From Tricharina praecox (lineage: Eukaryota): a stretch of DNA of 30,673 nucleotides. Shown piece after piece: positions 14,975 through 27,930 of the stretch. The notes beneath the pieces were generated by a model. It saw only the letters and a list, made by a program, of their open reading frames with translations, made no database searches and was not told the origin of the DNA. The translations under genes were made by a program, and so were the position numbers. Numbering within the stretch: position 1 is the first letter of the stretch; each line of letters starts with the position of its first letter. The DNA lies in the NCBI RefSeq assembly GCF_024521635.1, contig NW_026250431.1, positions 496,001 through 526,673 on the forward strand. Reading direction: 5' to 3'.

Positions 14975-15460
14975 TGGCAAGGCTCAATCGCAACTCCAAG
15001 CCTGAGGAGGACGTTCACGTGCACGTACGTCGCCGAAATAGGAAGTAGCATACATTTTCGCCGGTACCAGTTGAGATAATCAATGAGGCCACTGTCGTGA
15101 GGATAACAGCTTTATCCTCACGAATGGAGTAGTCAACGTTCACATCTACCCTATGGTCGAGATCAATATCTTGACCTTCGGTGGTGGCTTCTCCGCGCGA
15201 GAGCAAGGTGGCACATACGTTCAGAAAGACGACGATCCGATTCAGCCCGGCAACTACTACATATCAGAGTTGGAAATCCACAGTGTAGGTATATGAAGAA
15301 GGTAGCAATGCTGTCTGACGGTATATCAGCGAGCCTCGTCTTCGGCCGGCCGAGTATTTGGCATATCAAGAATCAAGGGTCTACTGGAGTTACGATGATG
15401 TATGGGAGCGAGAGAACCTGTATATAGAGGACCTCTGGTCCGGAGAGACTGTAGAATAAG
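14975..15460 (+). pseudogene. Relic of a fungal HNH-endonuclease-family gene (N-terminal domain only)
   Basis: 15111-15293 reads FILTNGVVNVHIYPMVEINILTFGGGFSAREQGGTYVQKDDDPIQPGNYYISE. This matches the L.LTNGVTN..FY.MVEI....D..PLQPGNYYI N-terminal motif I recall from fungal HNH_2 proteins. An intron-like GTAGGT..CTGAC..CAG follows; no HNH core is recognisable. Confidence 0.6.
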
Positions 15461-18786: not shown

Positions 18787-19326
18787 TCACCTCCTCACCC
18801 TTAGAGGCACTACTGGTGTAGATGGAGCGAGCATGTTAGTGACATGTCCAGTAGCGGTTCTCAGATGTATCGAGTGGGCGCGATGTAATGGGAGGGTGGG
18901 TGACTCCATCTCCGGCACAGTGGCGAAGCTGCATGTTTGTACTACCAGCCCAATCGAACCAATGCTCCAATCTTTAAGCAAGACCAATAGACTTGTCAAT
19001 GATTAGAAATATCAGGCGAACGAGTAGATCTGTTTGGACCAGAGCACCCGTAACCATCTCAGGTCTCGAGGCGTTCGTTTCGCAGATCTAACTCTCTCGA
19101 CAGGACGATCGCAACCTGGAGAAGACGATAGTAATCCAATAAGCCCATTCTCCACGAGAAACTGCACGAGAATGATAGCTGAGGAATTGCTGGTGGCTGA
19201 ACCGCTCGCCATATTGTCTCCTTGCGTCGCGTACATCGTTTATGGAAGGTCTTGATATTATTCTTTTCTTTCCGCCACGATTTAAACGCGGAGATTCCCG
19301 CCGCTTAGCCGGTGCTTTCAGTCAGG

Positions 19327-19443
19327 AACAATCGTAAGGGAGCCACCACCACGAAGGAAACTCGCCAGACCGTAAAAATGGCTTCATCCATCAGGAAGGC
19401 TGGGTATGAAGAATATTCCCGATGAATGAGAGATTTGTATAAA
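19327..19443 (+). promoter_or_regulatory. Putative promoter of the pheromone-like gene
   Basis: TATAAA at 19438-19443, about 120 bp before the ATG, followed by a C/A-rich leader. HMG-box-type AACAAT at 19327-19332 is short and could be chance. Confidence 0.5.
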
Positions 19444-19562
19444 GCACGAGTTCATCTTCGCAATTTTTTTCCAGATCCTCATCCAGCCAGCAATCCTCTC
19501 TCCAGATCACCAATCAACACACAAACAACATCTTCGTCGCTATCCATCCAACCGCAGCCACT

Positions 19563-19763
19563 ATGCAGCCAAACGCCAATATCATCTTCGCCGCTGCGAC
19601 CGAGGAGGACACTACCCCGGTGAACTACGGCGATGGCTGTTAGTTACACTCCCTCCTTCCTCCCTCCCTCCTTCCCCCCTTCCTTCCTTCCTTTCGCGGT
19701 CACGGATAACGGTATGGATGTAATTGACGACGGTGACTAGACCAGATGTGTGTTATCTGCTAG
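19563..19763 (+). CDS. Candidate a-factor/M-factor-type lipopeptide pheromone precursor (32 aa, CaaX = CVIC)
   Basis: Exon 1 19563-19638; intron 19639-19740 (GTTAGT..ATTGAC..ACTAG); exon 2 19741-19763. Product MQPNANIIFAAATEEDTTPVNYGDGYQMCVIC*. It has an MQP start like S. cerevisiae MFA1/2, an Asn-Tyr processing site, and an MCVI ending like S. pombe M-factor. Confidence 0.8.
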
Positions 19764-21765
19764 ATGCTCTCTGGATCCTCGGTACGGCCGGATCAGCTTC
19801 CTCCTTTGTCTTTCCTTCTCGACAACCGATCGATCTTCACCGCCAACGTTTCATTTCGGGTTTCCAACGGCTTTCGTGGGGTAGTGGGGGGTAGTAATGG
19901 GGGGTGCAGAAGGCTGCCTTTTGGTTATTCGGGCAAGTGGACTAGAGGTGTAATGTTAAGGATGTATGGTGAAGGGTTATGTGAGACGGAATAACGTACC
20001 TTTTTTTTCTTATATACTACGGCTATGTTCTCTCTTAATGATCGTATCATAACCGTCCCATGGCCTTCCTGGCCTCTCCCGATTGAGTCACGTGAGTTAT
20101 CACTCGTTGCGGTTGTCGTCGGGCGCGGTACGGTTAGGACTCTTTCGTGATGGCATTACCATCTTCGACAGAGAGAAATCATCGATGAATCTACGGTCTT
20201 AATTGTTACGCGAATTTGGCCGAAACCACGCCGATGAAGAAAGTTTTCCGTATCCCGTGACCAACATAGATTTATCCTTCCAAACTAGGTGAGAAGGTTC
20301 TCAACCACAGGAAGCCTGAAGACAATCCGAGGATGAATATGAGATGCAAGTTCATATCTCCGACCGAAAGACACGGTGTTGTCGGGGGGTCGCGAATTAT
20401 GGGAGTCAATAAAGTTGGTGCTAGGTCGATAGACGTGCGGTGACTGGCCCATCTAATCGGTACTTCCCCTGCCAAGTTCCTTTGGCCCTTCAGGTGGGAA
20501 CCTTGCGGATAAAGTTTCCTGGGGATGGTATCTATGAAGAAAATATGTCGAAGGTCGAACCCTAAATATCACGGTATGAAATGGTTTCCCACGCAGATGT
20601 CATTAAATGCAGCCGCCATGATCCTCGCTATCCGCTAAGTAACGCAAGTGGAGGTTGAAGATCTGTTAACGTATCTTGGCCTGCATTGCACATGTGTTTT
20701 TCTCCGATATCGAGATACGTTCTTCGTGCCCGAGGAGCCTCGTCCTTGTGCATAGTGCGGAAGGCATATAAGTGGTCCATTCAGTCTCTTCTCCCACGGC
20801 ATAGAAGAAGTCCGTCGAGTTCAACATCTTGTCGAACAGGATCTGACTGCAACACAGTCCTTCAGCACATATACCGCTTATCTGGGGAATCCGCTTACAG
20901 GTATCTGGAATTCCGGTTATCTGGCATCGGCGATTTCAAGCGCCTCATCATACCTATTTCAGCACATAACCGGCGCATACCGAGATCTCGCAGCCATAGC
21001 CATGCCATTACCGTCCAGTTCACCCAGTTCACCCAGAGAGACGCCGAGGGACGCGGAGTCAGAGGCGGCTTGGGCTCATCGATGACATTGCAGTCAGCAG
21101 GAGCCCCACCGTTTTGCTCCCGGGATGCAGCATCCATACCACCCCGCCGCGCGTATCGATGGTTCGCACATCATTCACGGTCCGTCCAACACGTGCCTCG
21201 GGGTTGAATGGACTGCTACATATATCCAGAACCTTTTCACCAGCATTTATTTATCTTGTTCCGAAATCTCGTCAACCTGGGTAGCCAGGCCCGATACACG
21301 TGACCGACTTTGCACTCCCGTTTAGAGGAGCTATGGGTTTTCACGCGTTTCAAAAAACAGCTGATGCATGGTTTAAACTTTAGAATACCGTATTAATGCA
21401 CCCGCTATGCTAACTCCATACCCTTCCGACTTGCCGAGCCAGTCGTACAGTTTGTCCACCAAACGTTGAAACAGAGCTTGGGGAGGGCCAGGCATTTGTA
21501 TGCTGGTCCCGAGCCGTGAACAAGAATTTCCCGCCGCACAGAGGATCGTCACAATGAAGTACCACATACTTAACTGCCCACGCTCGACACAAAGCCCACC
21601 GTCACCCAAACCACCGGGTCCCGTCGGCGAAACGCATCTCATACCTGGCAGCTCACCATTCCGACTCGATCCTTTCTGCGGCCCGGATCATCTACCGCCT
21701 GTCGCGAAAACTTTACTTCCAGAGAGAGTCCCCCGACGCAGCCCCAGTACGTGGTGGTCGTACTA

Positions 21766-23118
21766 ATGGATCCGGGGCCGCGATTGCAAGTGTGCAAGTG
21801 GACAGGCTGCGGCGAAAACTTTCCCACCTCGAAGGAGCTCCACGACCATGTCCGCGACTCGCATGTGGCCAACGAGGTCGCCGTGGCCGGTTCGTTTACC
21901 TGCGGGTGGGGCTCCTGTCCGACGACGACCAAGAGGCGCGGCAAATTGGTCTCGCACCTTCTCGTGCACGTGAATTACAAGGCGCACAAGTGCAACATGT
22001 GCGAAAAGACGTACAAGCGGCCCCACGAGCTTAAGAAGCACCAGGAGAAGTGGCACGATCAAGACCTCCAGCAGCGCACGCCGAGGGCGTTGGCAGAGGG
22101 CGGACTGCTCGCCCCAACCATCGATAAAGACGTAAGGCCTTCCCTTGACGCATCCATCGAAACTAACCTGGATTTTGAGCAGTGCGTGGAGGAGCCCCCG
22201 GTGATCGACGGAGTGCTTGCCCTAGAGGCACTCGGCGAAATTCATCCCGAGTACCAGCAATGCAACGAGGAGCCTCCGGTGATCGACGGAATGTTTGCCC
22301 TAGAGGCACCCAGCGAAAGTCATCCCGAGTACCAGCAATACAAGGAGGACCCACCGGCGGAGGGAAAACTACTCACTGAGCATGGCTCACAACGCTTGTC
22401 AGACGGGAAGCGGCGCAAAGTGCGGCCCCCGGAGAGCCGTGGATTGCTTGCCCCAAGCGTGTGCAACCAAAGCGTGCCGGACAATAACGTGCAGCGCCTG
22501 CCGTACGATAACATGCATTGCATGCTGGACGAGGCCATGCAATTTCAGCAGGGCGAGGTGAAATTCATGCCGACCACAACGTACGGCAAACAGTTTGCCC
22601 CCGGCCCAACGTTCGAAAACATGATGCTGGTCGAAGAGGACTACGCGTGGCCCCCGGCGTACGATGGTATGCCTGCCGAATACCCTCTTTATCAAGGTCT
22701 GCCGGACGGGCAGCAGTACATGCAGCCCTCGACGGGCAATGTATATTTTGTCCCCGACGCACTCTTCAACTGCCTGCCCTACTCGGCACAGTGCGCGCAG
22801 CTCCCGGCAGAGAATATACAGTGTCCGCCAGCGGCACCGATGCGCGGCATGCCGGATGCAGGAGTGCAATACAACATGCCTCAACTCGCATACGGCGTGG
22901 AAAACGGTTTCCCCGACAATGCGCCTCGGATGAGTAATGGTGCTTACTACTACTCCCACCCCTCGCAGACCGGCTACGGAGTCGCTCCTGGAGCCGGCCA
23001 GATTTCCGCCGCGCATACCGGTTCCGCGATCCACGTCCAAGCAACTCAGCAGCAGCAGCCCCAGGACCGGCGGATGGCCCACAAAAGGTTGTTTGACCTG
23101 GCGGAAGAGCCCCATTAG
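21766..23118 (+). CDS. Three-finger C2H2 transcription factor, PacC/Rim101-like but divergent (450 aa)
   Basis: CKWTGC..F.....LHDHVRDSH, TCGWGSC.TTT.RR..LVSHLLVH, HKCNMCEKTYKRPHELKKH. Trp residues in fingers 1 and 2 and KRP..LKKH in finger 3 are typical of PacC. The C-terminus is Q/P/Y-rich. Confidence 0.88.
   Translation: MDPGPRLQVCKWTGCGENFPTSKELHDHVRDSHVANEVAVAGSFTCGWGSCPTTTKRRGKLVSHLLVHVNYKAHKCNMCEKTYKRPHELKKHQEKWHDQDLQQRTPRALAEGGLLAPTIDKDVRPSLDASIETNLDFEQCVEEPPVIDGVLALEALGEIHPEYQQCNEEPPVIDGMFALEAPSESHPEYQQYKEDPPAEGKLLTEHGSQRLSDGKRRKVRPPESRGLLAPSVCNQSVPDNNVQRLPYDNMHCMLDEAMQFQQGEVKFMPTTTYGKQFAPGPTFENMMLVEEDYAWPPAYDGMPAEYPLYQGLPDGQQYMQPSTGNVYFVPDALFNCLPYSAQCAQLPAENIQCPPAAPMRGMPDAGVQYNMPQLAYGVENGFPDNAPRMSNGAYYYSHPSQTGYGVAPGAGQISAAHTGSAIHVQATQQQQPQDRRMAHKRLFDLAEEPH
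22177..22356 (+). repeat. Intragenic 78-bp (26-aa) tandem repeat, about 2.3 copies
   Basis: EQCVEEPPVIDGVLALEALGEIHPEY / QQCNEEPPVIDGMFALEAPSESHPEY / QQYKEDPP. Confidence 0.9.
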
Positions 23119-25709: not shown

Positions 25710-26528
25710 CTACCACGACGCCGCCTTGATATATCTCTCCTCAGTATCACGTAACGCATTCGCGATCGGCGCCATGCCCGCCAGAATCTGCACGAATTCG
25801 ACCTTCTGCTTCGGATCCGTTAGACGGTACTCCCTGCCGACCTCCATGCGCATTCCGCCCTTGAGCCCGACCACTTTCCACATCGTTTCCAACTGCAGGG
25901 CATCGAGTAACCGTCCCAGCACCGTCGCCTTGATCACGGCCGCCTTCCCCGCCCGCACCGACACCAACCACACTTCCCACTCCGTCTCCTGCGACCCCAT
26001 GAACTCCTGCGCTAGCGAGAGCACGAACGCCGCCTCCTCCGCAAAGTCTACACGTCGCCGCTTCGGCTCGACCACCCACAGCCGTGTGCTGATGTATCCG
26101 CGCGCACGCCAATGCACGGTTCGGTCGTGGTATCGCAGCGAGAAGTGGTAATACGGCCGTTCGTAGCGCGGGCAGAGGTAGCACAGCACCTGCTCGATCA
26201 GCTCGGTGCAACACTTCTGGCGCAGCTCGATGTGGTACGGGGTGGCGGAGAGCTCATTGAGCTCGTACGAGGTTTCGGCGATCGGGAATAGGTGGATCGT
26301 CGTGCAGAAGCCGGGACTGAAGGCGTCGGTGAACGGTTCCGCGGTGTTTTGCACCGCTTCGAGAAGTTCTGGCGGGGCTGTGCCGGCTGGCAAAAGCAAC
26401 CCGAAGCTCACGATTGCTCCGACTGTCGCTAGGTGGTTGTTGTTCCAGTTGCTCGGGTCGATCAGAGAGCGTCGGGGCTTCTTGCGGGAGCTGGTTCGCG
26501 AGGCGGGAGAGGGGGGGAGAGGGAACAT
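25710..26528 (-). CDS. 272-aa hypothetical fungal protein, possibly a PD-(D/E)xK-like fold
   Basis: Uninterrupted ORF from ATG 26528 (MFPLPPSPASRTSSRKKPRR...) to TAG 25710. A recognisable paralog on the opposite strand supports coding status. Contains RARGYI..LWVVEPKRR..EEAAFVLSLAQ..VWLVSV. Confidence 0.8.
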   Translation of the reverse strand: MFPLPPSPASRTSSRKKPRRSLIDPSNWNNNHLATVGAIVSFGLLLPAGTAPPELLEAVQNTAEPFTDAFSPGFCTTIHLFPIAETSYELNELSATPYHIELRQKCCTELIEQVLCYLCPRYERPYYHFSLRYHDRTVHWRARGYISTRLWVVEPKRRRVDFAEEAAFVLSLAQEFMGSQETEWEVWLVSVRAGKAAVIKATVLGRLLDALQLETMWKVVGLKGGMRMEVGREYRLTDPKQKVEFVQILAGMAPIANALRDTEERYIKAASW

Positions 26529-27054
26529 CGGTATCTTGTCGCAGACGGCCTGCGAGGCGGTGGATGATTTCGTGTTAGTTGTGGGGTGGGCAGTCGCGTG
26601 CGTGATGTCAGGACCTGCAAGCGAAGGAACAGGATAACTACACGACCTTGGGATACGTGGGCCTTTAAGACGTCCTTGTGTTGCAACCTCGCGTCCACGT
26701 GACGCCCTGCACTGCGCCGGATAAACACTATGGAAGTGAGGCTCAATAGAGAGGAACGCGAAACATCCCGTCGTTTCCGTATTCCACTGCACCAGAAATA
26801 CTACGCGTTCAATCGCTGTGACGGCTCGAGTGATCGATAGCAACTTGTGCAAACGTATCACAGAACCCTTGTGTGGCGGCCACTGCAGGGGCTTCAAGGA
26901 TACTTCAGGTACTTGGATAACAAACCTTGTGTGGCGCTTCCGCAACAGGGGTATTGCGTCATCGCACTTTCAGCCGCTCACGAAATCAATCGGTCGCCCC
27001 ACTTGCCCCTCTGAACATCTCCCTCCTGTCTCCAACACCGCAACGAACACGGAA

Positions 27055-27930
27055 CGACCGCCCCCTCCACCGAGCTCCTTCCGCAAGAATTCCAAGCGCA
27101 GCGCGCTGCCAGTGGAATCGCGACCGCCTGTCCGCGGTGAGTGCGACTGTCAGCTCGGACAACGCCTTCGTACCTTCGTACTTTTGCACCCTCGCGTCTC
27201 CACCGGAACGACTCGATGCTCTACAACCCACCGCTCCCCCATCCGCCAATTCCTTCAGTCCGATGTCCTCGAACGCACTCCTCTCCACCGCCGTATCTCC
27301 TACCGTCTTAAGTCGCCCAATCCCATAGTACACCGCGCGCGACCGACCGCCGCCAGCAATTGCGTACATACCGAGTTGATCGAGAATGTACCCCGCTATG
27401 TACTAGTACATTCCGCCCTCTCTACATACATACATACGGGCGGTGCATTGACCCGCTATCGGCGCGCTATATACCGCGATAAGACTACGGTATCGATTGG
27501 AGTCCGTGCGGGGTATGCTAGCACGCTTCTGTGTGTGGCCGAGCCGAGCTGGCGTGCGGAGTTGTGGAGGAGGAGGCGGAGTTCGTGCTCTCGCTTTCGC
27601 TCGCGCGGGAGGAGTGGGGTCCGGCGGAAGGAGTGGGAGGAGTGGGAGGTTTGCTTGCTGTCGGTGCGAGCGGGTAAGGTGGCGGTGGTTGAGGCTACGG
27701 TGGTGAGATGGCTACTCACGGCTACTCACGGCGCTCGTAAGGGAGGTGTCAGGAAGGCGCCAGGGAAATCGATTGGAATTGGACACGGCGGAGCGGTGCG
27801 ATGCGAATGGAGGTGGGTGGCTGCAATGGATCGCGTGACGGATTAAGAGGGGAGACTCTGGCGGGGCTGGCGTTGATGGCGAATGCGATACGTGCTGGTA
27901 GAGCGGGATAGATCGCGGCGCGTCATGGTG
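27055..27930 (+). pseudogene. Frameshifted inverted paralog of 25710-26528
   Basis: Collinear blocks in different frames: QWNRDRLSAVSATVS~NWNNNHLATVGAIVS, SPPERLDALQPTAPPSANSFSP~APPELLEAVQNTAEPFTDAFSP, TELIENV~TELIEQV, EWEVCLLSVRAGKVAVVEATV~EWEVWLVSVRAGKAAVIKATV, MRMEVG, LAGLALMANAIR~LAGMAPIANALR. Confidence 0.88.

Follow-up and report, generated by a model that had tools for sequence, protein, structure and literature searches.

A putative intron-split micro-gene, candidate for a farnesylated pheromone of the a-factor class in a filamentous ascomycete

Described a-type pheromones and the candidate

Among the fungal pheromone systems described so far, the M-factor of the fission yeast Schizosaccharomyces pombe appears to be the closest analogue in design to the candidate micro-gene considered here, which lies at positions 19563-19763 of the 30,673-nt stretch of DNA that was analysed (hereafter the window). 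Introns occur in the M-factor genes mfm1-3, which give rise to the mature peptide YTPKVPYMC(farnesyl)-OMe; the counterpart in S. octosporus is YQPKPPAMC (PMC6342294; this and all other sources are cited here from excerpts). The sequence-only reading that this analysis followed up had quoted the same farnesylated methyl ester for S. pombe. Like mfm1-3, the candidate would combine a tiny precursor that contains the mature peptide once with a gene interrupted by an intron, and its mature peptide would likewise begin with Tyr and end with Met-Cys, farnesylated and methyl-esterified in the fission yeast and predicted to be so here. The two are likened by design rather than by sequence homology. The mature M-factor has nine residues against eight predicted for the candidate, whose predicted intron splits a codon inside the predicted mature peptide and whose CaaX box ends in Cys, and the host is in this case probably a filamentous ascomycete.

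The genes for the a-factor precursors of Saccharomyces cerevisiae, MFA1 and MFA2 (PMC2134810), are intron-less and give a mature peptide that exceeds the candidate's in length and hydrophobicity. The candidate's mature part contains an Asp and two Gly residues, and its processing is a prediction. Cleavage is nevertheless predicted at a similar place, after an Asn and before a Tyr, and the candidate further resembles MFA1 and MFA2 in its short precursor, its hydrophilic pro-region and the Val-Ile aliphatic pair of its CaaX box.

Within the Pezizomycotina, mfa-1 of Neurospora crassa and its Sordariomycete relatives, as well as the putative a-factors of the Leotiomycete BCIN_13g03330 family, resemble the candidate in being short, usually unannotated and provided with a CaaX box and a Gly-Tyr near the C-terminus, although the position of the Gly-Tyr is compared by description (PMC10569646, PMC8661429). 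These a-factors end mostly in Met or Leu, as in CVVM, CVIL and CTVM (PMC10569646, PMC8661429). The candidate differs from them in its terminal Cys, in an N-terminus that is not rich in Ser or Thr and, as regards the Sordariomycete members, in the lack of cyanase and EBP2 neighbours. An intron in the coding region of Pezizomycotina a-factor-like genes was not found in the excerpts of the reports on them. Intron-split pheromone genes are known from elsewhere: MFA4 of Yarrowia lipolytica is divided by an intron and was missed by ORF screens (preprint 10.1101/2021.09.28.462209). The frame of the candidate is similarly broken by a predicted intron and invisible to stop-to-start ORF screens. MFA4, however, has three intron-less paralogues through which it was recognised and has been confirmed by a deletion, whereas the candidate is predicted from its sequence.

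The lipopeptide ligand of the Ste3-type receptor had never been found outside the Sordariomycetes before a putative Leotiomycete family was put forward, as the excerpts of a 2023 report state (PMC10569646). The same source agrees with the statement of the sequence-only reading on filamentous ascomycete lineages that lack an identified a-type pheromone gene, most classes being in this position, and our literature searches found no later report of an a-type pheromone in other ascomycete classes.

Anatomy and predicted processing

The locus may hold a micro-gene of two exons, overlooked by annotation, which encodes the precursor of a lipopeptide pheromone of the a-factor class in a filamentous ascomycete, a reading that we hold tentatively and at somewhat less than even confidence. 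All the sequence features claimed earlier for the locus were found in their places by direct reading and with scripts, namely the TATA box, the ATG, the predicted 102-nt GTTAGT..TTGAC..TAG intron and the 32-residue frame ending in Cys-Val-Ile-Cys and a stop (Table 1). The leader behind the TATA box is poor in G, with 11 G in the 117 nt that follow the TATA context (~10%). Its final 100 nt contain eight G and thereby rank among the bottom 2.2% of 100-nt segments of the 30.7-kb window. The base at position -3 of the start codon is A. Exon 1 codes for the pro-region and for the beginning of the predicted mature peptide, including its Asn-Tyr.

Table 1. Coordinates of the candidate micro-gene and of other coding features in the window
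Feature	Position	Strand	Remarks
TATAAA box	19438-19443	+	The window has 11 TATAAA, counting both strands; the next ATG downstream follows after 119 nt
Putative 5' leader	19444-19562	+	C/A-rich, G-poor, without upstream ATG; transcription inferred
Exon 1	19563-19638	+	25 codons including the ATG, then the opening base of a Tyr codon completed in exon 2
Predicted phase-1 intron	19639-19740	+	102 nt, 68% pyrimidine; splicing predicted from signals
Donor GTTAGT	19639-19644	+	Sole GTnnGT near exon 1
Branch-like TTGAC	19724-19728	+	Sole [CT]T[AG]A[CT] motif in the intron; its A 13 nt from the acceptor G
Acceptor TAG	19738-19740	+	First AG past the branch-like TTGAC
Exon 2	19741-19763	+	Remainder of the Tyr codon, Gln-Met-Cys-Val-Ile-Cys and stop TAG (19761-19763)
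CaaX box CVIC-TAG	19750-19763	+	Exists in the spliced frame only
Alternative acceptor CAG	19743-19745	+	5 nt downstream of the TAG acceptor; frame shift, CaaX lost
C2H2 zinc-finger ORF (Zap1_zf1/zf-C2H2)	21574-23118 (stop to stop); 21766-23115 (450-codon ORF)	+	Pfam
DUF7881 exon	15087-15293	+	Pfam, E 2.9e-12

The fate of the C-terminus depends on splicing. Left unspliced, the frame yields a 26-residue peptide ending in GDGC, its TAG stop overlapping the GTTAGT donor; unspliced translation thus bore out the earlier statement that a CaaX box is missing from this form. The claim that an acceptor at 19745 would destroy the CaaX box was also correct, since the product of the alternative CAG acceptor is a 74-residue protein that ends in GSGG. 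The sole branch-like motif and the AG that comes next behind it predict the very splice that makes the CaaX box. A GTTAGT donor and a TTGAC branch are acceptable, but other forms are commoner in the fungal consensus. Inside the proposed intron, a CT-rich tract at 19649-19692 is a tandem repeat with a period of 8 or 15, in roughly 3-5 copies. Should the intron be real, length polymorphism between strains is likely.

The predicted spliced product was compared with the features by which a-factor-class precursors have been recognised. A length below 100 aa and a CaaX box followed by a stop have served as filters for this class (PMC10569646), and the candidate has 32 residues and a Cys-aliphatic-aliphatic-X directly before the stop of the spliced frame. 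As a filter for maturation, Srikant et al. required an Asn in frame ahead of the mature peptide (preprint 10.1101/2021.09.28.462209); the candidate, with an Asn-Tyr eight residues ahead of the Cys, is retained by it. Wilson et al. described a Gly-Tyr close to the C-terminal end in the a-factors of Sordariomycetes and in 87 sequences from Leotiomycetes (PMC10569646), and a Gly-Tyr would be formed here across the predicted splice junction, two residues ahead of the Cys. The Ser/Thr-rich N-terminus of the Pezizomycotina members was not found, the 25 residues of exon 1 including three Thr and no Ser; the N-terminal region of this exon is rich in Ala and acidic. Regarding the terminal Cys, the farnesyltransferase of Arabidopsis shows little specificity for the last CaaX residue, and the CaaX variants constructed to assay this enzyme included CVIC (PMC3017772). 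By analogy, CVIC is a plausible farnesyltransferase substrate.

With the exception of the sequence features themselves, we infer the steps of maturation throughout. Transcription would begin behind the TATA box, and removal of the intron would replace the stop that overlaps the donor by a seven-residue tail ending in Cys-Val-Ile-Cys. The CaaX Cys would then be prenylated by farnesyltransferase, Val-Ile-Cys would be taken off by a Ste24/Rce1-type protease and the new C-terminus would be esterified by a Ste14-type methyltransferase. A cut after the Asn would remove a 21-residue acidic pro-region and leave a farnesylated methyl ester of eight residues, with Tyr at its start and Met-Cys at its end. 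This peptide would be exported by an ABC transporter of the Ste6/Mam1 type and sensed by a Ste3-type receptor on the partner.

Upstream region, neighbours and the wider window

Pheromone response elements of the Ste12 type or HMG-box cores are expected ahead of a mating pheromone gene. In the 1.2 kb upstream of the candidate, TGAAACA, TGAAAC and CAAAG do not occur, about 1.6 copies of CAAAG being expected from the density in the window, and a single AACAAT is present at 19327; we take these motifs to be Ste12-type PRE or HMG-box sites. The absence of regulatory motifs upstream of the candidate is mildly negative evidence. According to Srikant et al., promoter motifs are weak predictors compared with conservation (preprint 10.1101/2021.09.28.462209).

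Sordariomycete a-factor genes sit between genes for cyanase (cyanate hydratase) and EBP2 (PMC8661429). A Pfam scan covered 299 stop-to-stop ORFs of the window, that is, 104 of the 111 ORFs of at least 90 aa, the seven omitted ones overlapping the zinc-finger gene, and all 195 ORFs of 55-89 aa. None of them matched the STE3, MAT, ABC-transporter, cyanase or EBP2 families, so that no cyanase or EBP2 neighbour was found in the window. Only three kinds of ORF had a Pfam match, namely a zinc finger, DUF7881 and a collagen repeat (two ORFs), and Rfam and tRNA scans of the window gave no matches; the window is gene-poor. The collagen-repeat matches are spurious, as they come from a reverse reading of a 9-nt microsatellite. 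The sequence-only reading, which saw in the locus the a-type pheromone precursor of the organism, is therefore borne out in part: the anatomy holds and the CaaX, Asn and Gly-Tyr filters are passed, while upstream motifs, a Ser/Thr-rich N-terminus and Sordariomycete synteny are lacking.

Searches centred on the locus itself returned little. None of the eight stop-to-stop ORFs of at least 55 aa at or beside it (19426-20452) matched Pfam, nor did a 56-residue frame and a downstream 76-residue ORF. In a protein atlas, the 76-residue ORF had low recognition, with no match of at least 0.9 and no credible family. No protein of 28-90 aa in the collection searched shares three 5-residue words with exon 1 (in a 51-residue in-frame reference), so that the predicted products of 32 and 74 residues are both missing from the annotated or called proteins of that collection. 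The exon-1 peptide was not found in a full-text literature search either. A degenerate DNA pattern for the C-terminal heptapeptide and stop matched 13 metagenome contigs, all 13 without further likeness to the locus. No RNA run on record was listed as containing 19350-20050, and one run of presumed type shared 4% of the sampled words. This run and three soil metatranscriptomes were compared with positions 19300-20100 at 80% likeness and no reads were placed, a result that is uninformative on expression either way.

The zinc-finger ORF encodes a protein with an N-terminal three-finger C2H2 domain of the PacC/Zap1 type and a long, unmatched tail rich in Gln and Pro, in which a 78-nt tandem repeat was noted at 22189-2357. 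An exhaustive search with this protein returned 2354 proteins at E <=0.001. Among the 149 matches listed, P0001 excepted, only the finger region of about 100 residues was matched, at 29-47% identity. The best matches of the finger domain are PacC/Rim101-type proteins from many ascomycete classes, including several lichen-forming fungi, and the protein-atlas clusters are fungal; two word-based searches for relatives of the protein gave no match. A public model of 93 residues (P0001, NCBI/UniRef) is identical to the N-terminus of the ORF, and a 450-residue call from a sequencing-run assembly (P0151), in the same cluster, is 100% identical to it. Gene models are thus on public record for this genome. 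The ORF runs uninterrupted for 450 codons, and the 93-residue public model may be truncated.

Besides the zinc-finger ORF, DUF7881 is the only curated domain in the window. As read from the sequence, its exon is followed by an apparent 45-nt intron (GTAGGT...CTGAC...CAG), and such short introns are in the style of filamentous ascomycetes. Together with the ascomycete matches of the finger domain, this suggests that the DNA comes from an ascomycete, probably one of the Pezizomycotina. A basidiomycete pheromone/receptor locus was considered and rejected on account of this ascomycete-type intron and of the lack of a STE3-type Pfam match among the ORFs scanned. Elsewhere in the window, a perfect 9-nt microsatellite, CTCCCCCTT, extends over 1811-2061 (27.9 copies, 100% matches), and a 70-nt repeat array lies just upstream of it at 1527-1738. 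Two long head-to-head ORFs without Pfam match, at 25710-26969 on the minus strand and 26740-27846 on the plus strand, overlap at their 5' ends. They show weak mutual similarity (31% over 197 residues, E 8e-8) and share a near-identical motif around WEV-x-L-x-SVRAGK, and have the look of an orphan gene that was duplicated in inverted orientation and has diverged.

Chance, rival readings and significance

The frequency with which chance gives such a frame was estimated by enumerating both strands for strict CaaX-stops (Cys, two of A/V/I/L/M, any residue and a stop) and for micro-ORFs, defined as ATG-started frames of 18-70 aa read directly or across a single intron of 45-250 nt (donor GT[AGT][AGC]GT, branch [CT]T[AG]A[CT]). 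Composition-matched random windows from a second-order Markov model served as the null. The window contains four strict CaaX-stops on its two strands, the random mean being 4.1. The candidate is its sole CaaX micro-ORF, direct or spliced, with no second copy on either strand. At least one CaaX micro-ORF was present in 62% of 300 random windows, and a spliced one in 15%; by itself, a CaaX micro-ORF is not above chance. One or a few true pheromone genes are expected per fungal genome. Random sequence yields 1.6 CaaX micro-ORF models per window (1500 windows, ~46 Mb), and a random genome-equivalent of about 46 Mb gives on the order of a thousand or more. Real genomes offer similarly large numbers, as Srikant et al. 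counted 284,073 short ORFs with a CaaX-stop in 332 yeast genomes, 125,711 of them with an in-frame Asn (preprint 10.1101/2021.09.28.462209).

The additional features are far less common. In 1500 random windows, candidates with Asn...CaaX numbered 0.34 per window, only six candidates were the first ATG behind a TATAAA located 40-250 nt upstream, and the two features were combined in none of the windows. A suitable Asn was present in about 25% of random candidates. Of 1090 random candidates from 700 windows, 12 had a GY within eight residues before the Cys, four had an Asn-Tyr at a suitable distance and two had both an Asn and a Gly-Tyr. The conjunction of peptide features with promoter context is rare: the Asn/Gly-Tyr filters and the promoter context each reduce the number expected at random ten- to hundredfold. 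Taken at face value, the peptide and promoter filters thus bring the chance look-alikes expected per genome well below one, odds that must be discounted heavily because part of the features were chosen after the locus had been seen, because the Markov null contains no real promoters, low-complexity tracts or simple repeats (which are frequent in this window), and because the splice signals are sub-optimal, an acceptor competes and regulatory motifs are absent.

What speaks for a pheromone gene is, on the one hand, a complete and self-consistent frame with one donor, one branch-like motif and an acceptor at the next AG and, on the other hand, a start codon that is the first ATG behind a TATA box and follows a G-poor leader free of ATG. 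The alternative acceptor 5 nt downstream, use of which would abolish the CaaX box, counts against it. The same facts can be read as a chance frame in intergenic DNA, where a TATA box, pyrimidine tracts and a CaaX frame coincide in a gene-poor, repeat-rich region, and this is a considerable possibility, albeit one we place clearly below even. CaaX micro-ORFs, including spliced ones, come easily in random windows, few ORFs of the window match Pfam, CT-type simple repeats are abundant and one of them fills the proposed intron. Exon 1 has no match among annotated or called proteins of 28-90 aa in the collection searched, mating-related promoter motifs are absent upstream, and the supporting features were picked post hoc by a reader scanning many windows. 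Coincidence accounts less readily for an Asn...CaaX frame at the first ATG behind a TATA box, a combination that no random window produced, for a GY and an Asn-Tyr that each occur in about 1% of random candidates or less, for the unusually G-poor, ATG-free leader and for intron signals that are coherent with one another.

It is also conceivable, but unlikely, that the transcript is real and the CaaX box coincidental, the product being the 74-residue protein, the unspliced 26-residue peptide, a non-coding RNA or a leader/uORF. The promoter-like context favours transcription and is silent on the product, the two acceptors are only 5 nt apart, and the 74-residue alternative contains a hydrophobic stretch, as judged from its frame. 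Yet the sole branch-like motif favours the first AG and with it the CaaX frame; moreover, the other frames at hand, of 56 and 76 residues, lack a Pfam match and the latter is barely recognised in the protein atlas, and an Asn...CaaX frame with a GY is very unlikely for any random ATG. On balance, the locus could well be a true farnesylated pheromone gene of a Pezizomycotina lineage without an identified one, its CaaX box made only by splicing within the region that codes for the mature peptide, although our confidence in this stays a little under the midpoint. We regard it as a good candidate rather than a demonstrated gene, attractive and cheaply testable.

A Ste3-type receptor is retained in most filamentous ascomycetes. 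Should the locus prove to be no more than a chance frame, it would still show the ease with which CaaX micro-ORFs arise. If it is real, it would be notable as a farnesylated a-type precursor whose CaaX box arises only through splicing, and an intron-made CaaX box would explain the failure of stop-to-start and annotation-based screens outside Sordariomycetes and Leotiomycetes. It would then also provide a search template, in which an exon 1 ending in Asn-Tyr-x-x-Gly is joined over a phase-1 intron to an exon 2 of seven codons that closes with a CaaX box. Once validated, the predicted peptide would be a testable ligand for the mating biology of such lineages, and pheromone screens would have to model introns.
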